From Nanobdellota archaeon (GTDB taxonomy: Archaea; Nanobdellota; Nanobdellia; Pacearchaeales; GW2011-AR1): DNA of 44,333 bases. The notes under the pieces were generated by a model. It was not told the DNA's origin and searched no databases. It saw only the letters and a list, made by a program, of their open reading frames with translations. The stretch lies in the NCBI GenBank assembly GCA_038044985.1, contig JBBSYY010000013.1, positions 1 to 44,333 on the forward strand, given 5' to 3'. The position numbers and the translations under genes are program-made. Positions 34-43,710 of the stretch are shown one piece after another; positions within the stretch are counted from its first letter, which is position 1, and each line of letters starts with the position of its first letter.

Positions 34-267
34 TCAAGAATTCTCAAAAACCACGTACTTTAGTGCGTGGGAATTCTTGAACACCTCAAGAATTCTGACA
101 ATTGAATTCTTGATGGCCATCAGGAATTTTATTCCCGAGGCAAGAAAATTTCTTACAAAGGAAATTTTCTGTACAGAAAATTCCAAACAACAAAAGGAAT
201 TTTCTTGCATCCAAAAATCCAAACAAACCATGCCCTAAAGGGCATGGTTAGACGAAAGGATTTTTTG
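34..267. repeat. Array of six consecutive stem-loops (nested-hairpin repeat family, locus 1)
   Basis: Read directly. TCAAGAATTC(34-43)/GAATTCTTGA(71-80) encloses CCACGTAC-TTTA-GTGCGTGG(51-70). Then TCAAGAATTC(86-95)/GAATTCTTGA(104-113); GGAAT/ATTCC(123-135); AGAAAATTTC(143-152)/GAAATTTTCT(161-170); AGAAAATTCC(175-184)/GGAATTTTCT(196-205). Finally CCAAAAATCC(211-220)/GGATTTTTTG(258-267) encloses AAACAAA+CCATGCCC-TAAA-GGGCATGG(221-247). ORF 34..231(-) is composed of these palindromes and is treated as spurious. Confidence 0.85.
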
Positions 268-321
268 ATTTACTAGTTGATTTTCTTTTTCTCTATTCAG
301 TTCTACTAATCTTTTTTACCT

Positions 322-1632: not shown

Positions 1633-4077
1633 TCACCCCAAATAACTTTTAGTTGGTTCTAGAGCTGCTTTAGCAGATCTTAAATAATCTGTTTCTATTT
1701 TTCTGTATCTGTCCATATCTGCTTTTGTTATACTAGCCCCTACTTTTTTTATAGCCTCTTCAAAGTGTTTCATTTTAACTTCTTTAGCCTCTATGTTTTC
1801 TCTTAGAGAAAGCATTGCCGCCTCTCTAACTAAAGATTCAATATCAGCCCCAACATAGCCTTCAGTTTGATCAGATAAATAATAAACTAATTTATCTTTA
1901 TCAGATAATTCTTTAAAGTCAACAAATTTAATAGATTTCTTTTTTGTTAAATCTGATTGATTAATTGGCTCATCAGCAGCCATTTTTGAAAAAACACCTT
2001 CTATTTTCTTATCTTTAAACGTTCTATCAAGTACCTCTCTTTCTCTATCGTCTAAAGAAATAGGCATATTTTTAGTATGTATTCTGAGAATTTGTAGTCT
2101 CCCTTCTTTATCAGAAGTTCCAACTAACAATATTCTGTCAAATCTTCCTGGTCTTAATAAAGCCCCATCTAACATATCTGGCCTGTTAGTGGCCCCAATA
2201 ACAATTACATTAGTTAAATCTTCAATACCATCCATCTCAGCTAATAACTGGTTTAAAACCCTTTCAGTAACCTTTGTTCCTGCCTCTAACCCTCTTTTTC
2301 CAGCTAAAGCATCAATTTCATCAAAAAAGATTATACATGGAGAAACCTGTCTTGCTCTGCCGAATACCTTTCTTATTCCCTCCTCTGATTTCCCAACCCA
2401 CATCGACAAAAGACTTGGACCCTTTACTTGTATAAAATTGGCTTCGCTTTCTTTTGCAACTGCTTTTGCTAATAAAGTTTTACCGGTTCCAGGGGGCCCA
2501 TAAAGCAAAATTCCTTTAGGAGCCTTTATTCCTAATCTAATAAAGGCATCTGGATATTTTAAAGGCCATTCTATAGCTTCTTTTAATTCTCGCTTAACTT
2601 TATCCAATCCACCAACATCTTCCCACGAAATATTCGGAGTTTCTACTAATACTTCTCTCATTGCAGAGGGTCTTACAACCTTCAGAGATTCATCAAAATC
2701 TTTTTTTCTTACTTTTAACTCTTTTAAAACTTCTTCAGGAATCTCTTCATTTTCTTTTAATTCTAATTTAGGAAGCACTCTTCTTAAAACAACCATAGCT
2801 GCTTCTTTTGCAAGTGCAGAAAGGTCTGCTCCGACAAAACCATGAGTAATGTTTGCAATTGCCTCTAAATCGACATCTTTTGTTAAAGGCATTCCTCTTG
2901 TATGAATTTTTATAATTTGTAGACGGCCTTTTTTATCAGGAGCTCTTAATTCAATTTCTCTATCAAATCTTCCTGGTCTTCTTAAAGCAGGATCTATGGA
3001 ATTTACCCTATTGGTTGCAGCAATAACAATAACTTTTCCTCTAGGTTGTAGACCATCCATCATAGTTAATAGCTGACTTACAACTCTTCTCTCAACTTCT
3101 CCCCCAACATCTTCTCGTTGAGGCGCAATAGAATCAATTTCATCAATGAAAATTATTGAAGGAGAGTTTTTTTCAGCTTCTTCAAAAATATCTCTTATCT
3201 TTTTTTCAGACTCGCCGTAAAATTTACTCATAACTTCAGGACCATTTAATAAAATAAAATTAGCATCAGATTCATTTGCAACAGCTTTTGCTAATAAAGT
3301 TTTACCGGTTCCAGGAGGCCCATGCAATAAAACTCCTTTTGGTGGTTCAACCCCAAGTCTTTCAAAGATTTCAGGATGTTTTAATGGAATCTCTACCATT
3401 TCCCTAATTTTTTTAACTTCATCCGTTAATCCTCCAATATCTTCATATGTAACTACAGGTATAGATTCCTCAGAAATTTCTACGGTTTTATTAGTTAGAG
3501 TAACTTCTGTGTTTTCTGTTATAATGCAAGGGCCATTTGGACCTATATTTGCAACTATAAATCTTATTTGTTGTATTCCTCCAAGATTTCCAAATCCACC
3601 AAAAATATCATTTAAATTTCCAAAAATATCATCCATTCCAAATTCATCATTAATTAAACTTCTTCTTCTATTCACTCCTCCAAGAACAAGAATATCTCCT
3701 TTAATAGCAGCTCTTCCAAGCAATCCTGGTTTTAAGTCTCCTTGAACCCTTATTCCTTTTTGAGTAGGAGCAATTACAATTTTTTTTGCTTCTTTAATTT
3801 CTGCTTTATTAATAATAACATTTTCACCAACACCTGTACGGGCATTTTTTCTTATAATACCATCAATTCTTATAATGCCTTCACTAACATCAGCAGGATA
3901 GGCCTTATCAGCAATTGCAACAGTTTCTCTTTCGCCTTTAATTATTATAATATCGCCTCTATGAACCCCCAACTCTTTCATAATTTCAAAATCAATTCTA
4001 GCAATTCCTTTATATGCATCATCCTGTAATGATTCTGCTACTCTTAATTTAATGCCTTTTAATGTTTTTGGTCCCAT
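1633..4077 (-). CDS. cdc48: CDC48/VCP-type AAA+ ATPase (two AAA domains)
   Basis: Two Walker A motifs (GPPGTGKT twice), Walker B motifs IIFIDEID and IIFFDEID, and two PGRFDR motifs. The N-domain begins LRVAES...GIARID. Confidence 0.92.
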
Positions 4078-4783: not shown

Positions 4784-4895
4784 TTTGAATTTATAGCTTA
4801 TTGATAATTAGATTAAATTTATTATTGATATTTTAGTAATACTAAAATGGTTTTTGTTAGTCATGCTAAACCATAATTCTAATATGGTTAACATT

Positions 4896-5033
4896 TTATT
4901 GATTAACTGTATAACAAACTATAATATTATTATTTAATTTTGAAAATTTGTTAATAAAGAGAGAATTATTAAGAGTATTAAAAATGGTATAAGGCTCAGA
5001 ATCATTTGTATTATTACTTGTTTTTATTGCCAT
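4896..5033 (-). CDS. micro-ORF 2 (45 aa), paralog of 5051..5155
   Basis: Hand translation: MAIKTSNNTNDSEPYTIFNTLNNSLFINKFSKLNNNIIVCYTVNQ*. It shares MA.K and D[AS]EP..IFN[ST] with the neighbouring micro-ORF. Confidence 0.35.
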   Translation of the reverse strand: MAIKTSNNTNDSEPYTIFNTLNNSLFINKFSKLNNNIIVCYTVNQ

Positions 5034-5050
5034 TTTCTTTATATGCTATT

Positions 5051-5155
5051 CTAATAGTTATTAATTAATAATTTATTTAGAGAGTTAAGAATTAATTTTT
5101 TATTTTTAGAATTAAAGATAATAGCCGGTTCAGCGTCTAATTTTTTATTTGCCAT
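5051..5155 (-). CDS. micro-ORF 1 (34 aa), paralog of 4896..5033
   Basis: Hand translation: MANKKLDAEPAIIFNSKNKKLILNSLNKLLINNY*. The codons of the conserved residues differ from the paralog mainly at third positions. Confidence 0.35.
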   Translation of the reverse strand: MANKKLDAEPAIIFNSKNKKLILNSLNKLLINNY

Positions 5156-5377
5156 TCTGTTTTTTCTAGTTATTTTTTTCTGTTTATTTTAAACCCCAGA
5201 AAAGCAGGCTCATACAAAAAGTATGTTTTTGCTCTTCTAGGGGAAAAGAGGTGTATTAAGAAAACATATACATTAACTGTATACACTTTCTGTATACACA
5301 AGAGATAGCTAATATTTAAATCTTTCGGTTTTTTTGGCTTTGCACATAAATTAATTTCTGCACAAAAAACAAATAAA

Positions 5378-5986
5378 CTAAACCTCAATCACTCTTCCTT
5401 TTCTACCAACACTAAAAACTCTTGTTTTTCCAATTTTTTCGCTTAAGCCTTCTGCCTCATGAATATGTCCGCTTAGAAAAATATCTGGCTGAAACTCTTC
5501 AATAGCTTTTCTTAATGCTCTGCTTCCCCTAAAACCAGAAAACTCTGCTTTAGTTCCTGCTGCATGCAAATGACTAACCATTATTTTTTTCTCTAAATTT
5601 TTAATTTTTTCAAAATCTTTTTTTAATTTTTCAAAAGTCTTTTTTTCATTCAAACTCATCTGCCAGTCAGGACTTCCAATTCCAAAAATTCCTATATTAC
5701 CATATTTAACATAATGCTCTCCTACATTTTCAGCTCCATAAAGTTTTGATAGAAAGTTTGCGGTTTCTGAAGATTCCCAGTTGCCAGGAACAAAAACAAC
5801 TTTCTTCCCCCTTTCAACAAACGGCTTTAAAATATTATCTGTCTCTATTAACCCTGTTATATCTCCAGCTAAGACAACTAAATCAACCTTTTCTTTATCT
5901 GCCAGCTCAGCTAGTTTTTTTGCTGCACTTGAATCCCCATGAAAATCACTTGCCGCAAGTATTTTGAATTTTTTTTGTTTTTCCAT
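5378..5986 (-). CDS. metallophosphoesterase (calcineurin-like)
   Basis: Ordered motifs: ASDFHGD, VLAGDITG, VPGNWE, SHLHAAG, SGHIHEA. Confidence 0.85.
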   Translation of the reverse strand: MEKQKKFKILAASDFHGDSSAAKKLAELADKEKVDLVVLAGDITGLIETDNILKPFVERGKKVVFVPGNWESSETANFLSKLYGAENVGEHYVKYGNIGIFGIGSPDWQMSLNEKKTFEKLKKDFEKIKNLEKKIMVSHLHAAGTKAEFSGFRGSRALRKAIEEFQPDIFLSGHIHEAEGLSEKIGKTRVFSVGRKGRVIEV

Positions 5987-6162
5987 GATTTAAGTTATTT
6001 TATTAATTATTATAAATTTATCTTTATATACTTACTTTTGTAATCCACCCCAAATTTATGTCTTAAAGATACCAAATTTCTTACTAAAAACCATTATTTA
6101 TAAATGTGATTTATTGAGATTCTGTTAACCGATAAGGTGATAAATTTGTAAAAATTTTAAAT

Positions 6163-6534
6163 TTACCGAAGATAAATTGACATTTTAATATTTAACCCCT
6201 CTTGATCTGGCTGATATAAAAAAGGATTTCTTTTTAATTTCAGATCTAATCTTAGTTCATACTCTCGCTCTAATTTTGACATTTGTTTTTGAGTAAATGG
6301 TTTAAATTTTTTAATTTTTCTATAGAAGATTTCAGTTTTTATTGTTCCAGGTTCTTTGCTTAACAAAATTTTTTTATCTAGTTTAACATGAGAACATAAA
6401 CATTCAAGAATAGCTCCAAAAGATTTTAAAATTATATGTTTTCCATTTGGATCTAAAGCAACAAAATATTTGCTCCTATCTTCAATACATCTGCCAATAA
6501 ACATATCGTAATTATTTAATTCTATATCTATCAT
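6163..6534 (-). CDS. hypothetical protein (123 aa)
   Basis: The ORF start overlaps the uppS stop by 4 nt, suggesting a coupled operon arrangement. No motif recognised. Confidence 0.45.
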   Translation of the reverse strand: MIDIELNNYDMFIGRCIEDRSKYFVALDPNGKHIILKSFGAILECLCSHVKLDKKILLSKEPGTIKTEIFYRKIKKFKPFTQKQMSKLEREYELRLDLKLKRNPFLYQPDQEGLNIKMSIYLR

Positions 6535-7217
6535 GTCCCAAAATTCCTCTTCCTCTTTTTATACTCTTCAATGCAATTAATCAAATCATTTTTATCAAAC
6601 TCTGGCCACATCTTATCTAGAAAAAACCACTCTGAATAAATTGACTGCCAAGGAAGAAAGTTAGAGGTTCTCTTTTCTCCTCCAGTCCTTATAATTAAGT
6701 CTGGTTCACTTTTTAAATATAACCTATCTTCAAATAAATTTTCATTAATATCCTCAACTTTAACTTTATTTTTCAAGATTTTTTTTACAGCTTCTATTAT
6801 CTCCTGACGACCGCCATAGGCAATTGCAAAATTAACAATAACTTTTTTATTATTTTTAGTCCTTTCCTCTAATTTTAAGCACAACTTTCTTAGCTCTTCT
6901 GGCAATAATGAAAGATCCCCAATAAATTTGATTTTTATTTTATTTTTTTCAATCTTTTCACTATCTATTTCCTTAAAAGTCTCACTAAAAATTTTATATA
7001 AATAATTTAATTCTTTTTTAGGCCGATTTTTAATGTTTTCTACAGAAAGAGCATAAAAGGTCATTTCTTTTATTCCTAGTTCCATAACATGATCTAAAAG
7101 CTCTTCTACCTTTTTCCTTCCATATTCATGGCCTTTCCAAGGTTCTAACATTAATCTTTTTGCAAATCTTCTATTCCCATCAAGTACAAATGCCACGTGT
7201 TTTAGTTCTGTATTCAT
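6531..7217 (-). CDS. uppS: cis-prenyltransferase, undecaprenyl-diphosphate synthase family
   Basis: HVAFVLDGNRRFAKR near the N-terminus, then AYGGRQEI, and IRTGGEKRTSNFLPWQ near the C-terminus. Confidence 0.9.
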   Translation of the reverse strand: MNTELKHVAFVLDGNRRFAKRLMLEPWKGHEYGRKKVEELLDHVMELGIKEMTFYALSVENIKNRPKKELNYLYKIFSETFKEIDSEKIEKNKIKIKFIGDLSLLPEELRKLCLKLEERTKNNKKVIVNFAIAYGGRQEIIEAVKKILKNKVKVEDINENLFEDRLYLKSEPDLIIRTGGEKRTSNFLPWQSIYSEWFFLDKMWPEFDKNDLINCIEEYKKRKRNFGT

Positions 7218-9078: not shown

Positions 9079-9333
9079 AAAGATCAGTTCATTACGTAGG
9101 AACGATCTTTATGTTGTTGAGAATGTCCTTTTATTAGTTTATGTTAGAATTGAGTTGCAGGGACGTTTTCAATTCCGAGCATCCCAAAAATCAACGAACA
9201 GACAAGAGGATTTTTCTGATACAGAAAACAAACTCCCGTTTTTAAACTGGAGTAATCGCAGTTGTTTGTTTTCTGTCTCCCCAACTTTAGAACAAACCTC
9301 GGACTTTAGTCCGAGGTATACGCGAAAAGTTGG
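9079..9333. repeat. Nested-hairpin repeat cluster (locus 2)
   Basis: AAAGATC/GATCTTT (9079-9110). ACAGAAAACAAAC(9221-)/GTTTGTTTTCTGT(-9276), 13 bp. CCAACTTT/AAAGTTGG (9281-9333) encloses AGAACAAA+CCTCGGAC-TTTA-GTCCGAGG. ORFs 9155..9376(+) and 9169..9360(-) lie on these palindromes and are treated as spurious. Confidence 0.8.
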
Positions 9334-9349
9334 TGATTTAGCAACTAAA

Positions 9350-9850
9350 TTATTCAACAACTATCACTCCTGTTGAACTTGGGTTTAGATGGTCATGATA
9401 TCTCCAAGAGCCTTTTTCATTAAAAGTAAAACTGTAACTTTCTCCATTTTTTAATCCTCCACATGCATCAAAAATTTTATTTTTTTCAGAGGTATTACAT
9501 TTGCTTATGTCTGATCCTGGATAAGCTCTATGTTCAGTATGGACAGCCGATGCTGGCCAACTTAATCCAGAGTCTTTATTAATAAAAGTAATTTCCTTGC
9601 CTTGAGAAATAGTTAAACTTTGTGGAAAAAATCCAGAAGAGGTTATTTCAACAACGTTTTCTTTAGTTTCTTGTGTTTCTTCTTGAGATTGTTCAGTTTC
9701 TGTTATAACCTTTACTTCTCCAGTTTCTTTAGCTATCCCATTAGTTTTGGGCGATGTTGGAGTTTTCTGTGTATTTAAAACAAAATAACTAGCTATAGCT
9801 ATTAAGACTAAAATAATAATTATAATACCTAAGGCCTGAACTTTTTTCAT
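9350..9850 (-). CDS. membrane-anchored cupredoxin-like domain protein
   Basis: N-terminal signal anchor (ALGIIIIILVLIAIASYF). The C-terminal pattern F.P..LTISQGKEITFINKD...H...SYSFTFNEKGSWRYHDHLNPSSTGVIVVE is typical of a cupredoxin fold. Confidence 0.5.
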   Translation of the reverse strand: MKKVQALGIIIIILVLIAIASYFVLNTQKTPTSPKTNGIAKETGEVKVITETEQSQEETQETKENVVEITSSGFFPQSLTISQGKEITFINKDSGLSWPASAVHTEHRAYPGSDISKCNTSEKNKIFDACGGLKNGESYSFTFNEKGSWRYHDHLNPSSTGVIVVE

Positions 9851-10060
9851 GTTAATTAAACTAAATTACAATATAAAAGCTTTTCTAAAAATTTCTATCC
9901 AAAATTAATTGAAATTTAACTCAGATTTACTATTATCTTGATTTATTAATCTTAATAATTATTATAAACGATTGTCGAGGTAGATTCACAGAGTAAAATT
10001 AAAAATCTCTAATTATTAACATTCTCTTACCTCTATGGATAAAAGTTGGGTGATATAATG

Positions 10061-10295
10061 CAGAAAAAAAGTAAGCCACTGCATTTAGGCAGTGGACGTT
10101 GCTTCGCAACGTCTTTTTTTCTGTCTCAAAAACTTCAAACAAACCGCGACCTAAAGGTCGCGGTAAAACACAAGAAATTTTTGATGTCGAAGTGTTTGAC
10201 AAACCACGCACTTTAGTGTGTGGAACACTTCGAGCATCCAAAAGTCCTAAACAAACCTCGGCTTTTAAGCCGAGGTACACACAAGAACTTTTTGA
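10061..10295. repeat. Nested-hairpin repeat cluster (locus 3)
   Basis: CAGAAAAAAA/TTTTTTTCTG encloses two hairpins (CCACTGC/GCAGTGG and GACGTTGC/GCAACGTC). Three canonical units follow: TCAAAAACTTC..GAAATTTTTGA around CCGCGACC-TAAA-GGTCGCGG; TCGAAGTGTT..AACACTTCGA around CCACGCAC-TTTA-GTGTGTGG; CCAAAAGTCC..GAACTTTTTG around CCTCGGCT-TTTA-AGCCGAGG. Confidence 0.85.
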
Positions 10296-10367
10296 TATAC
10301 AGAAAAATTCTTATATCTATAAATTTATCACAATAATACTTAAAACCCTCAATTTATTATTTCTTAA

Positions 10368-11102
10368 ATGGAACTTGAAAACAAAATTATGACAGGAAGC
10401 CATGATTTAAATAAATGGCTAGACGGAGGTTACGAAAACGGTGTGATAACTTTATTTTATGGTCCTCCTGCTTCTGGAAAATCAAATTTTATTATTCTTG
10501 CTGCTTGTCATCAGGCAAAAAAAGACAAAAAAATTATTTTTATAGACACAGAAGCAAGTTTTTCTATTGATAGAGTTAGTCAGATTACTAAAGGACTTCC
10601 AGAATTTGTACTAAAGAATATTGTTATTTTAAAGACAACAAATTTTCAAGAACAAAAAAAAGCGTTTATAAATATGTATAAGGAATTAAAAGCCTCTAAA
10701 AATATAGGATTAATTATTGTTGATAGTATAACCATGTTGTATAGACTAGAGCTTGCTGAGGCTAGAAAATCTGGTTTGGAAAAAGTGCAAAAAATTAATT
10801 CAGAATTAGCAGAACAAATGCAAGCTCTTAATGAAATATCAAGAAAAAGAAACATTCCTATACTAATAACCGCCCAAGTTTATAGTGAATTTTTAAGTGA
10901 AGAAGAGTGGCTTGCTGGAAAACAAGCAGGAGTTAGCGTTGTTGGCGGGGATTTATTAAAATATTGGAGTAAGTGTATAATTGAGTTACAATACAAAAAT
11001 GGCAAGAGAAGAGCTATTATCAGAAAACACCGTTCTATTCCACAAAAAGAGTTAAATTTTGAGGTTATTAGTGAAGGGATTAGAAAGAGAGGGTGGTTGT
11101 GA
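10368..11102 (+). CDS. radB: RadB-type recombinase paralog (RecA/RadA superfamily)
   Basis: Walker A GPPASGKSNF, Walker B-like LIIVDSI, about 240 aa, and no N-terminal HhH domain (RadB rather than RadA). Confidence 0.8.
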   Translation: MELENKIMTGSHDLNKWLDGGYENGVITLFYGPPASGKSNFIILAACHQAKKDKKIIFIDTEASFSIDRVSQITKGLPEFVLKNIVILKTTNFQEQKKAFINMYKELKASKNIGLIIVDSITMLYRLELAEARKSGLEKVQKINSELAEQMQALNEISRKRNIPILITAQVYSEFLSEEEWLAGKQAGVSVVGGDLLKYWSKCIIELQYKNGKRRAIIRKHRSIPQKELNFEVISEGIRKRGWL

Positions 11103-14507: not shown

Positions 14508-14651
14508 AGAGAAATTTCCTAACTTTAAGTAAGAGTTGGTAGTATATTTCTCTAACTCACAAAAGCAATTTTTATTATGTTCATAGATTGTAAATTGCTT
14601 TTGTTCGGCATCACAAAACCAATACAGAACCGAAGGTTTTGTGATATTATT
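14508..14651. repeat. Nested-hairpin repeat mosaic (locus 4): modules IV + V + I
   Basis: A degenerate AGAGAAAT..TATTTCTCT module (14508-14553). ACAAAAGCAATTT(14559-14571)/AAATTGCTTTTGT(14592-14604). ATCACAAAACC/GGTTTTGTGAT (about 14609-14646). Confidence 0.8.
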
Positions 14652-17990: not shown

Positions 17991-18065
17991 GGCTCTGTAG
18001 CTCAGTCTGGTTAGAGCACTGGACTCTTAATCCAGGTGTCGAGGGTTCAAATCCCTCCAGGGCCA
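17991..18065 (+). tRNA. tRNA-Lys (anticodon CUU), 75 nt, no intron, CCA not encoded
   Basis: Folded by hand. Acceptor GGCTCTG/CAGGGCC (one G-U). D arm GCTC-AGTCTGGTTA-GAGC. Anticodon arm CTGGA-CTCTTAA-TCCAG (CTT at positions 34-36). Variable loop GTGTC. T arm GAGGG-TTCAAAT-CCCTC. Discriminator A. The gene is followed by TTTTT. Confidence 0.93.
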
Positions 18066-18090: not shown

Positions 18091-18212
18091 ATCACAAAAC
18101 CCTGCGTTTTACCACATACTAAAGTATGTGGTTTGTTTGGGTTTTGAGATTCCCAAAAAATCCACTACAAATAATCCACTATCTAAAGATAGTGGATTTT
18201 TTTAGGATTAAT
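18091..18212 (+). repeat. Nested-hairpin composite element, copy A (modules I + II)
   Basis: ATCACAAAACCC..GGGTTTTGAGA encloses CCACATAC-TAAA-GTATGTGG+TTTGTTT. Next comes AAAAAATCCACT-ACAAATAA-TCCACTATC-TAAA-GATAGTGGATTTTTTT. Confidence 0.9.
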
Positions 18213-18341
18213 AATTATCAGTTAAATTTAAAATGAATAAAGTATAAGAGAGATATAAAAATCAGAAAATAGTAAGAATAAAAAAGTAAGAGATGATGAG
18301 TCTTATAATCAACGTTGACTAACTTTCAAAAATAAAGATAA

Positions 18342-18510
18342 ATCACAAAACCCTGCATTTTACCACATACTAAAGTATGTGGTTTGTTTGGGTTTTGAGA
18401 CTTCAGAATTGAAAATTCTGATAGTGATCAAGAACTTTGTTCTTGACATTCCCAAAAAATCCACTACAAATAAACCACTATCTAAAGATAGTGGATTTTT
18501 TTAGGATTAA
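18342..18510 (+). repeat. Nested-hairpin composite element, copy B (modules I + two type-III hairpins + II)
   Basis: As copy A, plus an inserted middle block TCAGAATT-GAAA-AATTCTGA and TCAAGAAC-TTTG-TTCTTGA. It differs from copy C by one base by eye (CTGCATTT versus CTGCGTTT). Confidence 0.92.
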
Positions 18511-18572: not shown

Positions 18573-19223
18573 ATGAAAACCAAAATATCAGAAATAATGA
18601 ATCTTCTTAAAAATCGTTTTAATCATGAGAGAAAAACTACTTTAAACAGAATGCGTGAAGAAAAAGACCCGTTTAAAATATTGATTGGATGTTTAGTTAG
18701 TATTAACATTAAAGACGAAGTTACCGAAAAAATTTTAAACGAGCTGTTCTCAAAAGTAAATTCTTTTAACGATATTCTTAATATGAATACCCAAGAATTA
18801 GAGAAAATTTTGTATTTAGCAAGATATAGAAAGGTTAAAGCCTCTACTTTAAAATCAGTTTCTAAAGAAATTTTAGAGAGATTTAATGGCGAAGTTCCTA
18901 ACAATAAACTAGATTTGTTAAGTATTAAAGGGATTGGAAATAAAACTGCAAATGTTGTTTTGAATTTTGCATTTAATAAGTCATTTATTCCTGTTGATTC
19001 AAATACAATTAGAATTTCAAATAGATTAGGATGGAGCAATACAAAAAAGCCGGAAGAAGTAGAAAAATTTTTAGTGGAAAATTTAAATGAAGATTTTCTT
19101 AAAGAGGCAAATGCTTTATTTATGCTTCACGGAAAAAAAATTTGCGTTCCTGTCTCGCCATTTTGTAGCCAATGTCCTATTGAAAATCATTGCATGAAAG
19201 TAGAGGTTGAAAAAAGCAGATAA
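18573..19223 (+). CDS. nth: endonuclease III (HhH-GPD DNA glycosylase with a 4Fe-4S cluster)
   Basis: HhH motif LLSIKGIGNKTANVVL. C-terminal cluster CVPVSPFCSQCPIENHC. Confidence 0.88.
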   Translation: MKTKISEIMNLLKNRFNHERKTTLNRMREEKDPFKILIGCLVSINIKDEVTEKILNELFSKVNSFNDILNMNTQELEKILYLARYRKVKASTLKSVSKEILERFNGEVPNNKLDLLSIKGIGNKTANVVLNFAFNKSFIPVDSNTIRISNRLGWSNTKKPEEVEKFLVENLNEDFLKEANALFMLHGKKICVPVSPFCSQCPIENHCMKVEVEKSR

Positions 19224-19342
19224 CCTCTAATTTTGATAATTTTTATCTTTGAGAGTTAACTAACCAGGAATTTATTTGCTAAAATAAAGTTAATCTAAAA
19301 GTAATAATTAATACCAATGTAATAAATAGGCATTTGATAAAA

Positions 19343-19511
19343 ATCACAAAACCCTGCGTTTTACCACATACTAAAGTATGTGGTTTGTTTGGGTTTTGAG
19401 ACTTCAGAATTGAAAATTCTGATAGTGATCAAGAACTTTGTTCTTGACATTCCCAAAAAATCCACTACAAATAAACCACTATCTAAAGATAGTGGATTTT
19501 TTTAGGATTAA
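19343..19511 (+). repeat. Nested-hairpin composite element, copy C
   Basis: A 169-nt direct repeat of copy B (18342-18510). I counted one mismatch. Confidence 0.92.
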
Positions 19512-19545
19512 AATATTGAATTTATGGCAAAATTTTGATAAAAGA

Positions 19546-20928: not shown

Positions 20929-21422
20929 ATTAAAACTTATTTAAAAAAATTTAAAGCGATAATAACAAAAAAGTAATATTTTTAAACATTTTGTTTAGAT
21001 GTTTTTATTATAGAGTAGATTTAAGGTAATAACAAATATTTATTTGTTCGATTAAGCTTTTAGAGTTTAATTTGCTATAAAGTTTGTTCAGTTGGTTATA
21101 ATTAGAGCTATGTCAAGTTAAAAGACAATGGCTTCAAATTTATTAACTTATAAATGATAAGGATTTTAATAATTAATAGTTATTGATGATAGATCTTATT
21201 GATAATCATAGGTAATTGGGCAGAGTCAACAGAGTTATAATTAATATTTTTAATAAAAAAAATTACAAAAATTAATTGTTACTCAAAATTAAAGCAACTA
21301 AAATTTGCTACTAGCTGGTTAGTTTTTTCAATAGAAATCTTTATAAACAGAAGTATAACATTAAATATATAGTTTTGAAAAGTAATTTTAAATTACACTT
21401 TTTAAAAATCCCTTCAGATACA

Positions 21423-21689
21423 ATGAAAGATAATTTTGATATATTTTTTAGAAGAAAGCCGGCATTAATGTTGGTAGCTTTAAAGAAAGTGTCTAAAGCA
21501 AGATATGGTTCTTTATTAGCGAAGGAAGTTGATTGTACTTATTCTCATGCAGTTAAGATCTTGCAAACATTAGAAGTTCTTGGCTTAGTTGTTTTTGAGA
21601 AAAAAGGCAGAATAAAATTAATAAAATTGACTAAGAAAGGCGAAGACATTGCAGATGATATTGATTCTATAAGAAGACAGTTGGCTTAA
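21423..21689 (+). CDS. winged-helix DNA-binding protein
   Basis: YGSLLAKEVDCTYSHAVKILQTLEVLGLVVFEKKGRIKLIKLTKKG fits an HTH plus wing. I prefer the ATG at 21423 to the ORF-track TTG at 21375. Confidence 0.6.
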   Translation: MKDNFDIFFRRKPALMLVALKKVSKARYGSLLAKEVDCTYSHAVKILQTLEVLGLVVFEKKGRIKLIKLTKKGEDIADDIDSIRRQLA

Positions 21690-21757
21690 TTTTTTATTTT
21701 AAAATTTAGTCTAGTTAAGAGGTGATTTTTGTTTTTTTAAAAAGAACTTAACAAAAA

Positions 21758-22096
21758 ATGAACCTCCAAGAAATAATACAAAAATTAAATAAAGAATTTA
21801 ATCCAGTTTCCATAGTTTTATATGGTTCTAGAGCAAGAACAGATTTCTTAGATAGAAGCGATTATGAAATCGGTTTATTTTGTTCACAGAATCATCTTGT
21901 TACATGGAACGACATTATACAGGTTGTAAACAAGAGAGGAACTAATATTTATCCATTTGTCTATGAAGATTTTTTAGAAGGAAAATTTGATACGCCGTTT
22001 CAAAAGAGGATTTACGCAAGAGAGATAATTGTTGCAGGAAAAACGCTTTCTGGAAAGAATATACAATCTTTATCCCCTTCAGAAATTAGAATATAA
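21758..22096 (+). CDS. minimal nucleotidyltransferase (MNT-like)
   Basis: LYGSRARTDFLDRSDYEIGLF matches the GS-x(n)-D.[DE] nucleotidyltransferase signature. No HEPN partner is seen adjacent. Confidence 0.7.
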   Translation: MNLQEIIQKLNKEFNPVSIVLYGSRARTDFLDRSDYEIGLFCSQNHLVTWNDIIQVVNKRGTNIYPFVYEDFLEGKFDTPFQKRIYAREIIVAGKTLSGKNIQSLSPSEIRI

Positions 22097-24306: not shown

Positions 24307-24363
24307 TAACAAATATTTATTAGAATATATAAAATCATTGATATAATAATTTTATGGTTATGT

Positions 24364-24484
24364 TAATCCTAAAAAAATCCACTATCTTTAGATAGTGGTT
24401 TATTTGTAGTGGATTTTTTGGGAATCTCAAAACCCAAACAAACAACATACTTTAGTATGTGGTAAAACGCAGGGTTTTGAGATA
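24364..24484 (-). repeat. Nested-hairpin composite element, copy D (inverted relative to A-C)
   Basis: Reverse complement of the copy A architecture: TAATCCTAAAAAAATCCACTATC-TTTA-GATAGTGG...CTCAAAACCC-AAACAAA-CAACATAC-TTTA-GTATGTGG-TAAAACGCA-GGGTTTTGAGAT. It carries a few substitutions. Confidence 0.88.
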
Positions 24485-26885: not shown

Positions 26886-27125
26886 TTAAAGATAAAGTTG
26901 AATTAATCCCCTAGAATTTATTATGGCCTCTCTTTCCAAAGTCGATGCCGTTAAAATTTCAAGTGCCACATATATTTTTCCATCAGTAACCGGGTCTTGA
27001 TTTTCTATTGCAGATTTTAACGCTTCTTTTAAATTAGCATAAACTTCTTGATAATTTTTAGCACCTTTAGAATAAAGAGGAATAAAATCTTTAAACTCAA
27101 AGAAATCTCCTACTCCCAAAAGCAA
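26886..27125 (-). pseudogene. HicB/UPF0150-like ORF without an ATG; its 5' end is buried in a repeat element
   Basis: 79 codons stop-free, including KGAKNYQEVYANLKEALKSAIEN (HicB-like helix). The only start is a TTG inside the AAAAGCAATTT arm, with a stop 2 codons upstream. Confidence 0.4.
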
Positions 27126-27304
27126 TTTTTATTTTATACAAATTTGTAAATTGCTTTTGCTCGCCTTTAGGTAGGATATCTCTTTGGCATCACAAAACCA
27201 GCAAACAAAAAACATTTTTTATCCAATTTTAATTTTGTAAAATGCTTTTTGTTTGACAAACCCACACATTTAGGTGTGGGTTAAAACCGAAGGTTTTATG
27301 ATAT
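27117..27304. repeat. Nested-hairpin repeat mosaic (locus 9): module V + half module IV + expanded module I
   Basis: AAAAGCAATTT/AAATTGCTTTT. CCTTTAGGTAGGATATCTCT, which is one half of module IV. ATCACAAAACC(27189-)/GGTTTTATGAT(-27303) encloses a 17-bp stem (CAAACAAAAAACATTTT/AAAATGCTTTTTGTTTG) and ACAAA+CCCACACA-TTTA-GGTGTGGG. Confidence 0.85.
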
Positions 27305-31527: not shown

Positions 31528-31701
31528 AAAAGAAATAATGATAAAGAGGATTTAAAGTTTCCTAATTTATATTGTAAATAAACAGTATAACAGATCTGAT
31601 TATAACTCAAGCAAGAAACTATGGGTTTTAAGTTATAGACTAATTGTGGCAATAAACAAACTAGACAAATTAACTATAAATAAAGAATTAATAATTAATA
31701 A

Positions 31702-31826
31702 AATCAAAAAGTCCTTGAGTATTACCACACCTTAAAAGGCGTGGTTTGTTTTAGGATTTTTGGATGCTCAGAAATTCGAAACACATCCTAAAGGATGTGG
31801 TTTTAAACTGTTGAGAATTTCTGAGA
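31702..31826. repeat. Nested-hairpin composite element E1 (modules II + III)
   Basis: CAAAAAGTCC..GGATTTTTGG encloses CCACACCT-TAAA-AGGCGTGG+TTTGTTTTA. TCAGAAATTC..GAATTTCTGA encloses ACACATCC-TAAA-GGATGTGG. Near-identical to 43516-43640. Confidence 0.9.
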
Positions 31827-31890
31827 TAAGAAAATTATGTATTTTAGTGAGTGGGATAAATCCCTTTGTTATTTAAAGATCTAAAAAAGT

Positions 31891-38760: not shown

Positions 38761-39052
38761 CTTTTATTATACGATAAAAAGAAAAGGAGTTTATTAAGTT
38801 TTGTATGTTTTATTTTTAATAATTAGGTAATAGACATAATAACCTCTAAATTAATATAATTTGATGAATAAAGGACTAGTAATTTTTTTGACGATATATC
38901 TAATTTTCATGCAATTCAGTTTCATACAATTTGGATATAGTTTATCTTCAAAATAGTTTTCTGATAAGCGAAACAAAAATATAGAAAGGTTTTTAAATAG
39001 GCTTTTTTTAGATTAAACAAAACTTAAAGATTTTTATTCTATAGAGGATAAG

Positions 39053-40487: not shown

Positions 40488-41993
40488 ATGAACCAAGAAT
40501 TAATTTGTTATAATACTGATGGCTCAAGGATAATTGGAAATGCATTGAAAGTAGTTTTTCCAGAAAATGTAGAAGAAATTAAAAAAGTTGTTTTTAATAA
40601 TCAGAATATTGTTCCAAGAGGAAGCGGAAGTAATTTTGTTGGCTCCTGTGTTCCTAATAATTCTGTTGTAATTGACATGAAAAAAATGAATAAAGTAAGC
40701 TTTGAAAATGGCAAGGTTTATGCAGAGTCAGGAGTTACAATGAAAGAATTAAATGAAAAACTAAAATCCGTTGATTTTGAATTTCCAGTTTTTTCAAACG
40801 AAGAAAGAACAATTGGAGGGATGATTGCTATGAACTCTAACGGTTACTTAGGAAGATATGGAAATATTAAAGAATGGATCGAAGAAATTGAGCTAGTAAA
40901 TGGGAAAGGGGAGGTAGTTAAAATAGGAAAAGCGGATTTATCAGATGTATGTGGTATGGAAGGTATAACTGGTATAATTACAAAAGCTAGATTAAAAGCA
41001 ATTTATTTACAAAAAAGAAGCGCTTCTATTTTTCAGGCAGAAACACTTGAAGATATTTGGTCAATTGCTAGAAGATTAAAATTACAAGAAGATGTTGTTA
41101 TGTTGAGGTTTTACTCTAAATCTGTTTCAAAATTAATGGGTTTTTCTCAAAAATATCACCTTTTTGTAGGATTTAATTCTGAAAGAGGCAAAATTAAAGG
41201 TGAAGACTATAATAATATTCTAAAAAACATAAAAAAAGAATATTACTATCTTTCAGCTCAAGGATATTATGATACAGACGATGTAAAATTCTTTTTTGAT
41301 AAGATAAAAGGGTTTGTTTCTTTTTTGGAAGAGCTTAAAGTCCTTTATTTTAGCGATTTATCTAGCGGCAGCATATATCTTTTTTTTATAGAGCAGGACA
41401 TTAATAAACAAAATGTTTTAAAAATGATTCAAAGAATGGGTGGAAGGCCTGGAAGTTATGGGACTGGAATAAAAAGAAAAAATATTTTAGATAATATACA
41501 GAAAAAAATAATACAAAGAATAAAGTCAAGATATGATCCACATGGAAAACTAAATCAAGGTAAGTTAATCGACTTTCTAGCTGGAGCGAAAGAAAAAAAT
41601 TGGTTTAAAAAGGAAATTAATAATGAGGTTAAAGAAGAAAGAAGCATAGAGGAAGATGCTGGTAAAATGGAAGACAATTATTCTAGAGAAGGATTTGTAG
41701 AAGAAAAATTAGAAAAATCTAAAGAAGATCTGGAAATTGAAAAAAAAGAAATTGAAAAGAAAAATGAAGAATTGATTGAAAGGAAGGAAGAGCTTATGAA
41801 AGAACCAGCTATTAAATACAAGGAATTTGAAATAGTAACTGAACCAGGGGCTGGAAAAGTTAAAATTAGCGATAATCTTCGAAGGAAAGCTATTATTTCA
41901 GAAAATGAAAAAGAGCTAATAAACAAGATTATGTTTAATAAATTAGACAACAAAGAGGATAGTAAAAAAGAACAAGAAAATAAAAATGGTTAG
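40488..41993 (+). CDS. FAD-binding (PCMH-type, GlcD-like) oxidase with a Glu/Lys-rich C-terminal tail
   Basis: VVFPENVEEIKKVV...IVPRGSGSNFVGSCVP is typical of the FAD_binding_4 domain. The last 130 aa or so are charged low complexity. Confidence 0.7.
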   Translation: MNQELICYNTDGSRIIGNALKVVFPENVEEIKKVVFNNQNIVPRGSGSNFVGSCVPNNSVVIDMKKMNKVSFENGKVYAESGVTMKELNEKLKSVDFEFPVFSNEERTIGGMIAMNSNGYLGRYGNIKEWIEEIELVNGKGEVVKIGKADLSDVCGMEGITGIITKARLKAIYLQKRSASIFQAETLEDIWSIARRLKLQEDVVMLRFYSKSVSKLMGFSQKYHLFVGFNSERGKIKGEDYNNILKNIKKEYYYLSAQGYYDTDDVKFFFDKIKGFVSFLEELKVLYFSDLSSGSIYLFFIEQDINKQNVLKMIQRMGGRPGSYGTGIKRKNILDNIQKKIIQRIKSRYDPHGKLNQGKLIDFLAGAKEKNWFKKEINNEVKEERSIEEDAGKMEDNYSREGFVEEKLEKSKEDLEIEKKEIEKKNEELIERKEELMKEPAIKYKEFEIVTEPGAGKVKISDNLRRKAIISENEKELINKIMFNKLDNKEDSKKEQENKNG

Positions 41994-42291
41994 TTTATCT
42001 GATAATGAGATGAAAATCCTTGAAACATTGAGAAACATGAAAAGAGGAATCTCAGAGGCAGAGGTTCATATTGTAAATGAGCTGCTTGATAGTACTGGTC
42101 ACTGGTTAGGGTTTAATTATGAGTTAAAACATTGGCATCATATTAATGAAAAATTCGTATCTTCATATGGGGCTAGTTATTTTAATCAGGAATTGCACGA
42201 TATTATTAATAAGTTAGTATCTAAAGGATATATTGTTAGAAACCTTGATGATCCAATTAACATAAAATATCACAAAACCTTTGGTTTTTAA
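41986..42291 (+). CDS. hypothetical protein (101 aa); the last 8 codons and the stop lie in a repeat arm
   Basis: The ATG overlaps the upstream gene by 8 nt. The N-terminus (LSDNEMKILETLRNMKRGISEAEV) may be winged-helix-like. The C-terminal KYHKTFGF* is encoded by ATCACAAAACC-element sequence. Confidence 0.5.
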   Translation: MVSLSDNEMKILETLRNMKRGISEAEVHIVNELLDSTGHWLGFNYELKHWHHINEKFVSSYGASYFNQELHDIINKLVSKGYIVRNLDDPINIKYHKTFGF

Positions 42292-42379
42292 CCCACGCCC
42301 TTAGGCGCTGGTTTGTATTGGTTTTGTGATGCTAGAGAAATATCCTACCTTTAGGTAAGAGTTGGTAGGATATTTCTCT
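42269..42379. repeat. Nested-hairpin repeat mosaic (locus 11): modules I + IV
   Basis: ATCACAAAACC(42269-)/GGTTTTGTGAT(-42330) encloses CCCACGCC-CTTA-GGCGCTGG+TTTGTATT. AGAGAAATATCCTACC(42334-)/GGTAGGATATTTCTCT(-42379), a 16-bp stem, has an internal TACC-TTTA-GGTA. Confidence 0.9.
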
Positions 42380-42393
42380 AAGTTTAATAAAAG

Positions 42394-43145: not shown

Positions 43146-43515
43146 TTTTTATTATATTTACTAGAATTAATTGAAAAAATAGATTTAAATATGTTGCTAT
43201 GAATTTAAAGATAATGGAAAGTTTAAATAAAAAATAAGATCCATTTAATAAAAAATAGATAGGAAGAAGTTTTTGAATAATTCAGTTTTTTATTATTAGC
43301 ACATGTTTCTAGTTTTTTACCCCACCTTAAAAACATCTTTTACATAATGTATATTAAATGATATATAAAGATTTATAAATGAAAGATCTTAATAAAAATG
43401 TAGTATAGAATTAGAGCATACAAATAGTAGAATGATCTAGCTTTAATAATTGGAAATTACTAGAATAAAACAAAATAAATTAATAAATCAAAGATGATAA
43501 AAATGTTAACTCATA

Positions 43516-43640
43516 AAATCAAAAAATCCTTGAGTATTACCACACCTTAAAAGGCGTGGTTTGTTTTAGGATTTTTGGATGCTCAGAAATTCGAAACACA
43601 TCCTAAAGGATGTGGTTTTAAACTGTTGAGAATTTCTGAC
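43516..43640. repeat. Nested-hairpin composite element E2
   Basis: Same sequence and orientation as 31702-31826. I see about two mismatches over 125 nt (AAAAAGTCC versus AAAAAATCC; CTGAGA versus CTGACA). Confidence 0.9.
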
Positions 43641-43710
43641 ATAATCAAAAAAGTCCAACCCAAGCTCTATAAGTTTATAAATTACCAAAAATAAAATAAT
43701 CAATAATAAA

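Follow-up and report, generated by a model that had tools for sequence, protein, structure and literature searches.

Modular repeats assembled from a few subunit types in variable number are known from Streptococcus pneumoniae, in which BOX elements follow the fixed order A-Bn-C. We report here a family of nested-hairpin repeats occupying 12 loci in a 44,333-nt stretch of a Nanobdellota archaeon genome (contig JBBSYY010000013.1 of GCA_038044985.1; this whole stretch is referred to as the window), which is likewise modular with few subunit types in variable number, although here both the order and the orientation of the modules vary. At a probability of roughly 0.78, we consider these elements to be non-autonomous, structure-dependent palindromic mobile DNA repeats of the DPANN (Pacearchaeota/Woesearchaeota) lineage; as such they are known in kind, being small palindromic non-autonomous mobile repeats, and new in a lineage where such repeats are uncharacterised. 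The readable DNA of this genome comes to ~54 kb, the window together with the adjacent 9.7 kb to its left (L133), and the material compared with it includes strain contigs (such as L127-L130), a sister species (L001, contig CAYIJD010000006.1) and the assemblies L150 (GCA_016234025.1), L154 (GCA_964626985.1) and L155 (GCA_053534955.1).

A parallel with REP (repetitive extragenic palindromic) sequences of bacteria and with the bacterial interspersed mosaic elements (BIMEs) had been drawn in an earlier note on this DNA, and as far as the modular mosaics are concerned the likeness holds. As in REPs, BIMEs and REP doublets forming hairpins (REPINs), short palindromic units carry a conserved unpaired 5' tag beside a compensated hairpin stem, are dense in intergenic DNA, occur in both orientations and together with other motifs in mosaics, have a terminator-like look, and show neither composite-spanning terminal inverted repeats nor an evident target-site duplication; many extragenic copies in mosaics of alternating orientation are indeed found (12 loci in 44 kb). 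Membership among the REPs has nevertheless to be discarded, since the GTAG or CGTC tetranucleotide at the 5' foot, which defines REP palindromes (PMC3733652), is absent at the hairpin foot in 20 units, the tag here being AAACAAA. The family further differs in its unit, two nested stems with an internal loop of 7 x 9-10 nt instead of a single 20-40-nt hairpin, in its DPANN archaeal host, in its presence also in open reading frames (ORFs), and in that no REP-associated tyrosine transposase (RAYT) was found in ~54 kb plus flanks.

With MITEs (miniature transposable elements with inverted repeats) and palindrome-associated transposable elements (PATEs) the family shares small size, non-coding character, multiple copies, insertion polymorphism between strains and terminal or subterminal hairpins. 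The suggestion of a MITE-like mobile family is in fact borne out by presence/absence polymorphism, by the small size of units (~60 nt) and composites (107-260 nt), and by the lack of own coding capacity. In PATEs both target-site duplications and terminal inverted repeats are missing, and the same seems to hold here; unlike in MITEs and PATEs, however, neither a parent insertion sequence nor a defined target tetra- or pentanucleotide is seen, and the modular nesting is unusual. As a working analogy, the palindromes of Rickettsia (Rickettsia palindromic elements, RPEs) and the potentially coding palindromic repeats found in Methanocaldococcus jannaschii (Suyama et al. 2005, cited by PMC2229807; see also PMC10969869) are similar in being palindromes of ~100-150 nt with no known transposase, carried by a host-dependent organism whose genome is reduced, and in having an open frame and being fused in frame into conserved protein genes (here the protein P0004 against six homologues), whereas the present family, for which no sequence relationship to them is expected, consists mostly of intergenic mosaics of ~60-nt nested-hairpin modules. 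Terminator-like repeated hairpins are also represented by SPRITE of S. pneumoniae, by name a 'rho-independent terminator-like element' (PMC10969869), which like BOX is bacterial and unrelated in sequence.

The existence of a dense hairpin repeat family at 12 loci, as first proposed, is confirmed by enrichment over shuffled sequence and by fold z-scores. The inner hairpin, an 8-bp CC......GG stem with a TTTA or TAAA loop, holds in the same way: 18 such stems (4-nt loop, at most one mismatch) are present in the window against 0.6 (maximum 2) in 30 mononucleotide shuffles of it, 17 of the 18 falling within the listed loci, and the pattern AACAAACC-N6-TWWA-N6-GGTWA has 7 matches where 0.00 are expected. 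All 12 loci fold into stacked or nested hairpins as described, and five composites folded as single-stranded DNA have z-scores of -4.8 to -7.6, with 0 of 200 shuffles as stable. The listed loci were recovered with adjustments, the ninth starting near 27095 and not at 27117, and the eleventh being better placed at 42269-42384 than at 42269-42379. By contrast, the view that nearly every large intergenic gap is filled was overstated, as elements are held by 10 of the 22 gaps of at least 200 nt and by 6 of the 9 gaps of at least 400 nt; moreover, one element overlaps the 3' end of ORF 41986-42291, so that the family is not strictly extragenic.

Altogether the elements total 2,044 nt, which is 4.6% of the window, and within its intergenic DNA their share is 19%; their density (12 loci, ~30 modules, in 44 kb) amounts to ~270 loci per Mb as an extrapolation from one window, which exceeds the 105 per Mb reported in a 2024 MITE census for 'a Woesearchaea genome', among the most MITE-dense archaeal genomes (PMC11602168). 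The earlier statement that no description of this kind was known from such archaea is only partly right: full-text literature searches found no description of a nested modular family, its covariation or its gene insertions, and the census paper does not describe this family, but through it repeat-rich DPANN genomes are already on record in bulk. Among cellular genomes those of DPANN archaea rank with the smallest and most compact, and selfish repeats are expected to be rare in them, yet such repeats make up ~5% of the DNA here.

The class A unit, ~60 nt long, reads (GC)ATCCAAAA(G/A)TCC - AAACAAA - CC N6 TTTA/TAAA N6 GG - TAAAAC(R)CAA - GGA(C/T)TTTTTGAT; in short form its core starts with ATCCAAAA(G/A)TCC, has the 3' spacer TAAAACRCAA and ends in the closing arm GGAYTTTTTGAT. 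Its outer stem, of 10-12 bp, encloses an asymmetric internal loop and an inner stem of 8 bp that is rich in GC and capped by a loop of 4 nt, the internal loop being conserved in sequence on both sides (AAACAAA 5', TAAAACRCAA 3') and AACAAA(C) being the conserved 5' sequence in 20 of 20 distinct units. The unit plan originally outlined is thus correct though incomplete, as it omitted the conserved 3' spacer, and of the five arm types distinguished at first, types I and II turned out to be variants of one consensus, (GC)ATC[CA]CAAAA[AGT]CC, while III, IV and V are kept. In class B units the arms are of the TCAAGAATTC or TCGAAGTGTT type and the 3' spacer is missing; further modules are the small hairpins of type III, the long ones of types IV and V, and units that consist of arms only, with no inner hairpin (14611-14647 and ~171-207).

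Modules are joined head to tail, often via GCATC/GATGC, with units of opposite orientation paired in the composites termed A and B and units of direct orientation at locus 10061-10296. The outer arms of single units form 10-12-bp terminal inverted repeats, e.g. ATCCAAAAGTCC / GGACTTTTTGAT; two-unit composites have no inverted repeats across the whole element, though they move as wholes. Modules are also nested within one another: a V-like hairpin lies in a type I linker and a type V hairpin in a type IV one (27095-27304 and L133 17568-17835), a pair of small hairpins lies between the units of composite B, and another pair in a class A outer arm of L154. The alignment of the composites bears out that copy B equals copy A plus a pair of small hairpins, which make up a 48-nt insert (18401-18448). 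Compared by eye, C/D box small RNAs (sRNAs), H/ACA sRNAs, K-turns, bulge-helix-bulge (BHB) motifs, attC sites and CRISPR repeats were rejected as candidates.

A covariance model, R1, built from 10 units recovers every class A unit in the window at 61-80 bits. When 20 distinct units, drawn from 8 sources, are aligned on the model, pairing in the inner helix reaches 96.3% and both sides are changed at 7 of its 8 pairs; the covariation is strong (score 0.431), being reached in 0 of 500 shuffles (0.174) and comparing with at most 0.183 when the partners are slid; the outer helix is 74% paired, register shifts explaining part of the shortfall. Inner stems differ between copies by compensatory change, as in CCACGCAC/GTGTGTGG versus CCTCGCAC/GTGCGAGG, and the substitutions between strains inside the first locus (L135 against the window) are too few and not clearly compensatory.

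Conserved unpaired nucleotides next to covarying stems are the classical signature of structured RNA, and the elements could be read as small structured RNA genes or protein-binding RNA motifs, with the internal loop as binding site and copies spread secondarily. We regard this as very improbable. The stems are 94% Watson-Crick and the wobble pairs are strand-symmetric (3 G.T versus 2 A.C), which suits a palindrome of DNA better than an RNA made from one strand; relative to the genes around them the copies are found in either orientation, and they also occur inside ORFs; turnover between close strains is fast; and by eye no recognisable promoter or box motifs (C/D, H/ACA, K-turn GA pair) are present. 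Nor do the elements belong to a catalogued family of Rfam 15, in which none matches them at gathering score or at E<=1, only tRNA-Lys passing and the rest being sub-threshold at chance level.

The elements of the window are listed below, with bit scores referring to model R1:

34..269, no strand assigned: mosaic of about six modules, including a class B unit, small hairpins, a unit of arms only (~171-207) and one unit of class A; 76.4 bits
34-80: class B unit with arms TCAAGAATTC and inner hairpin CCACGTAC-TTTA-GTGCGTGG
209-269, plus strand: class A unit of this first mosaic
9079..9337, no strand assigned: mosaic of about five hairpin modules, ending in the class A unit 9278-9337 (plus strand); 64.6 bits
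9278-9337: this class A unit lies 13 nt downstream of the stop codon of gene 9350-9850 (minus strand)
10061..10296, plus strand: mosaic in a divergent intergenic gap, with two hairpins inside an outer stem (10061-10123), then a class A unit (10125-10185) and composite Y; 80.5 and 70.4 bits
10185-10296: composite Y, i.e. class B unit, junction GCATC and class A unit
14508..14651, no strand assigned: type IV (14508-14553), type V (~14559-14604) and a type I arm pair without inner hairpin (~14611-14647); from the fold, 27 bits
18091..18150, minus strand: class A unit starting 25 nt after tRNA-Lys; 72.8 bits, E ~1e-14, and fold; in minus-strand reading arm ATCTCAAAACCC, linker AAACAAA, inner hairpin CCACATAC-TTTA-GTATGTGG, spacer TAAAACGCA, arm GGGTTTTGTGAT
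18150..18211, plus strand: second unit of composite A, with arms TTCCCAAAAAATCC / GGATTTTTTTAGGATT, linker ACTACAAATAAT and inner hairpin CCACTATC-TAAA-GATAGTGG; the hairpin is followed by T-rich runs on both strands
18342..18510, no strand assigned: composite B, with insert at 18401-18448 and at most 1 nt duplicated, from alignment
18401-18448: insert hairpins of composite B, TCAGAATT-GAA-AATTCTGA and TCAAGAAC-TTT-GTTCTTGA
19341..19517, no strand assigned: second copy of composite B, 177 nt, 98% identical, in direct orientation 1001 nt downstream
24363..24484, no strand assigned: reversed copy of composite A, within a divergent intergenic gap; 67.9 bits
27095..27304, no strand assigned: type IV hairpin interrupted by type V, then a type I unit with a V-like hairpin in its linker
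31695..31830, no strand assigned: composite X, i.e. class A unit (31703-31763, minus strand), junction GATGC and a unit with TCAGAAATTC arms
42269..42384, no strand assigned: composite with insertion polymorphism, made of a class A unit (42269-42330, minus strand) and a type IV hairpin (42334-42379)
43510..43645, no strand assigned: composite X again, with 96% identity to its first copy, within a divergent intergenic gap

Insertion polymorphisms show that these elements are mobile DNA. The composite at 42269-42384 (107-116 nt) is present in the window and in L130 and cleanly absent in L127, L128 and L129, whose flanks at this site are 86-96% identical to the window. In the strains without the element the 101-aa and 113-aa genes overlap (ATGA), and where it is present it provides the last 7-8 codons and the stop of the 101-aa ORF 41986-42291 (...INIKYHKTFGF*). 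The sister species, L001, is syntenic with the window from 39.5 to 25.9 kb at 66-88% nucleotide identity and has no elements at the sites orthologous to 31695-31830 and 27095-27304; it carries at a non-orthologous site a copy of composite X which is more similar to that of the window than the surrounding genes are (94% versus 66-88%). At the 31695-31830 site of strain L149 a different gene is found and composite X is absent. Composite A (18091-18211) recurs at 24363-24484 (96-97% identity, reversed) and in the strain contig L127 at 303-426 (100%), locus 27095-27304 has a homologue at L133 17568-17835, and the nesting of modules in modules (B versus A, L154, and L133 together with 27095-27304) is a further sign of mobility.

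The elements also enter genes. P0004, HEPN-like by a weak Pfam match only, was found via a protein search with the translated 97-aa ORF over 10061-10296 and corresponds to six aligned homologues (110-118 aa) plus an exact in-frame insert of 37 aa (111 nt), which is absent from all six and is flanked by conserved residues; the insert DNA in the P0004 gene is composite Y (L151). The peptide encoded by the element, DVEVFDKPRTLVRG.LRASKSP...LFD, is present in ORFs of other contigs, being found in the interior of the predicted ORFs P0005, P0020, P0062 and P0066 and also at L150 1893-2387. Further copies of composite Y are present in L150, L151/L152 and L153, and variants resembling it in L154 and L155; of the elements it alone was seen in ORFs. 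An additional module is nested between the two units carried by P0066. In the window itself a 97-aa ORF (10099-10392, plus strand) and a 93-aa ORF (9999-10280, minus strand) cross the hairpin mosaic, the former of which, although annotated publicly (L133 386-679, L147 3459-3752), is almost certainly spurious.

Modules and two-unit composites are thus both copied to new sites as units, and they land in intergenic DNA, at gene 3' ends, in frame in gene interiors, and in or next to other modules, copying into or beside resident modules being what gives rise to the mosaics. The family differs between co-occurring strains, rewrites gene ends, inserts peptides into proteins and sits at a rearrangement breakpoint. 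In the evolution of episymbiont genomes this has a parallel in the palindromes of Rickettsia, and strains could be typed by means of the polymorphic insertions. There are practical consequences as well, as the elements break short-read assemblies, affect binning and prompt spurious ORF calls (e.g. the 97-aa ORF 10099-10392). As a further indication of mobility, a number of short-read contigs terminate within elements (L131 on both sides, and L134, L136, L145, L146 and L129 on one side each), as expected of multi-copy repeats.

The breakpoint concerns the two B copies, 98% identical and in direct orientation, which bracket the endonuclease III gene (18573-19223): in L144, L145 and L146 the synteny with the window stops at 19273, and the next matching segment, 21285-21695, is inverted. 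The segment 19274-21284, with the second B copy and a 460-aa membrane-protein gene, is specific to the window strain. A gene flanked by such direct copies, with strain synteny breaking beside the second one, could suggest attC-like recombination sites of an integron-like cassette system, and attC sites are likewise conserved in structure rather than in sequence. We find this reading the least probable of those considered, hardly to be entertained, as no integrase domain is present in the window, the R-box consensus (RYYYAAC/GTTRRRY) is not seen by eye in the arms, and the copies lie in both orientations, in housekeeping-gene contexts, often as multi-hairpin mosaics or inside ORFs.

The position of some units at gene ends raises another alternative, namely that the hairpins are transcription terminators, insulators or other cis-acting RNA elements selected at gene ends in a compact genome. 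Read on the strand opposite the ACAAA linker, each unit has a GC-rich hairpin and, directly after it, TTTGTTT, the structure is kept through covariation, and sense units lie just past a stop codon or tRNA at 9278-9337, 18091-18150, 19343-19402, 42269-42330 and L133 11733-11798. Also, a scan for terminator-like sites between 1 and 20 kb gave 20 sites against 7.5 +/- 2.9 expected, 15 of the 20 being in elements. However, orientation relative to the upstream gene offers no support, being consistent at 7 loci and not at 5; divergent promoter regions hold three of the loci, and two are antisense; positions differ between strains and from the sister species; copies stand in frame inside ORFs; and the wobble pairs have no strand asymmetry. 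Hairpins are, in addition, not the main archaeal termination signal, termination in archaea relying mainly on oligo-T tracts and aCPSF1 (PMC7515710). Selection as terminators is hence an improbable origin of the family, and at most some copies may have been co-opted in this role.

The reading of the elements as structure-dependent mobile DNA has a number of points weighing against it. The copy number per genome is an extrapolation from ~54 kb, and the alignment used for pair counts was fitted to the structure of the model, which favours structure, even if the inner stems are unambiguous by eye. Polymorphism between strains may, taken alone, be due to deletion; the insert in P0004 argues for insertion rather than deletion. 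Domains of transposases, HUH or DDE enzymes or recombinases were found neither in the window nor in the 9.7-kb extension nor next to copies elsewhere, the search consisting of Pfam scans of ORFs without a precomputed Pfam hit together with the precomputed hits for other genes; this bears out for the window the absence of a transposase noted before. Specifically, Pfam scans gave no Y1_Tnp-like match among the window ORFs, the variable neighbour genes or the genes beside copies on other contigs, and the variable genes by polymorphic sites (L001, L127, L132, L144, L149, L150, L151) have toxin-antitoxin-like or DUF domains or nothing. Finally, no clear target-site duplication or target motif emerged from three filled/empty comparisons and the flanks of 8 copies, a comparison limited by AT-rich flanks and by the 6-14% divergence of the compared strains. 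The three X copies and the five A/B copies have no consistent flanking repeat, and junctions lie near GAT at three sites (...AAGAT|, ...CTGAT|, ...GAGA|) with no fixed target.

This last point bears on whether the elements are MITEs of the DDE type, with the outer arms as terminal inverted repeats, cut-and-paste movement and a short duplication hidden by the AT-rich flanks. Each unit is indeed bounded by 10-12-bp inverted repeats, a 3-nt GAT repeat is possible around the HEPN-like insert, an imperfect TAAGAT-like repeat, and only this, is conceivable at 42269-42384, and the Woesearchaeal genome of the census is MITE-dense (PMC11602168). The GAT, however, is ambiguous, as it belongs to the conserved unit terminus; and the 48-nt insert of B duplicates at most 1 nt. 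Furthermore, a terminal-repeat model requires neither the inner hairpin nor the internal loop to be conserved, two-unit composites move whole without spanning inverted repeats, and no parent insertion sequence was seen in the fetched loci. DDE-type movement is accordingly unlikely, if less so than the cis-acting and RNA explanations.

Under the preferred interpretation, of structure-dependent mobile DNA, folding into hairpins would be required for a copy to be mobilised, and this would explain why stems are kept paired by compensatory change while unpaired loop sequences are constant. Stems may also be helped to stay perfect by template-switch 'correction' of quasi-palindromes. A trans-acting enzyme encoded elsewhere would move the elements, most plausibly recognising folded single-stranded DNA and inserting without target-site duplication; the likeliest kind would be a Y1 HUH transposase of the IS200/IS605 TnpA or RAYT type, the alternative being a DDE transposase, and a terminator-like influence on genes nearby would be a by-product. 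That a hairpin of single-strand DNA is recognised in its folded state, as by the Y1 HUH enzymes of RAYT/REP and TnpA/IS200-IS605, is suggested by the constant loops, the compensated stems, the Watson-Crick symmetry and the movement of composites without spanning inverted repeats, and we put this forward tentatively, as somewhat unlikely when judged by itself.

Equally speculative is the possibility of a new hairpin-recognising single-strand DNA transposition system of DPANN, an archaeal counterpart of REP-RAYT or of the IS200/IS605 PATEs, in which the AAACAAA/TAAAACRCAA loop might act as recognition or guide sequence, modules might home to resident ends or loops, and some copies might have been co-opted as bidirectional terminators or peptide inserts; homing of new modules to the ends or loops of resident ones would explain the mosaics. 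In any case the conserved loops and covarying stems provide a handle for finding the recognising enzyme, and the significance of the family would rise if that enzyme proved to be a new hairpin-specific system.

Copies are present outside the window, in the adjacent 9.7 kb (L133 11733-11851 and 17568-17835), as strain variants, in the sister species and in a number of further assemblies of Pacearchaeota/Woesearchaeota. At least 6 assemblies or strains have class A units (window genome, L127 strain, L001, L150, L151, L153), making 8 sources with L154 and L155; the Pacearchaeota/Woesearchaeota assemblies with the family, of 28-37% GC, are thus at least 6-8, the higher count holding if L154 and L155 belong to this group. 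L127 represents a 90-96% identical strain, its class A unit at 508-572 being a strain variant; L150 is a Candidatus Pacearchaeota metagenome-assembled genome (MAG) with 37% GC, L151 another organism from Hainich and L153 a JGI contig, and L154 is archaeal judging by its eIF-1A and tRNA-intron endonuclease genes. In five more distant relatives (L002-L006, ~60 kb) the R1 search gave no copy, and three patterns run on IMG/VR viral contigs gave chance matches without stems, or nothing. A pattern scan of JGI metagenomes is uninformative on distribution, its 7 chance matches having come from a pattern with N5 in place of N4 that misses the window copies; the correct module pattern for such a search is ACAAACCACNNNNTWWANNNNGTGGTAA, with GTCGAAGTGTTTGACAAACC as companion. 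A perfect 9-bp hairpin, ACAAA-CCACGTACC-TTTA-GGTGCGTGG-TAA, is present at 378-407 of L137 (RHMF01207539.1, 40% GC); with its class A-like linker, loop and 3' TAA, and no R1 match at E<=1, it could be a distant relative or a coincidence.

The host is a DPANN archaeon with a small genome, from groundwater (Pacearchaeota/Woesearchaeota), as follows from its informational gene content, its aRF1 relatives and the groundwater strain contigs. The window, of ~28% GC, holds archaeal informational genes, namely those of CDC48, topoisomerase I, a RadB/RecA-like ATPase, TFS, endonuclease III, SerRS, ValRS, aRF1, ScpB and ribosomal protein S10, and a single tRNA-Lys(CTT) at 17991-18065. The closest public aRF1 relatives come from MAGs labelled Candidatus Woesearchaeota/Pacearchaeota, at 91% and then 74-78% identity, one 77% match being from a MAG with the label Candidatus Dojkabacteria; the TTG-start form of aRF1 has no exact protein match, probably because of a different start-codon call. 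Over its left 10.8 kb the window has 99.99% identity to CAYHUQ010000001.1 (GCA_964360005.1), and the strain contigs, near-identical or 86-96% identical to the window, come from Hainich groundwater assemblies.

Much of the strain-variable content beside the elements consists of toxin-antitoxin-like genes (nucleotidyltransferase/HEPN, DUF2283, HicA/HicB-like, PIN/MazE-like), located at 21758-22096 of the window, L144 5135-6196, L001 13023-13373, L153 408-875 and L154 5684-7319. In L150 the usually contiguous S13-S4-S11-RpoD genes are split at 2964-3921 and 4883-7036 by three and five small overlapping ORFs, which have no Pfam match. The cumulative GC skew of the window, which may just reflect coding-strand composition, reaches its minimum at ~38.8-39.1 kb, where gene orientation switches from mostly minus to plus across the 292-nt divergent gap 38761-39052.

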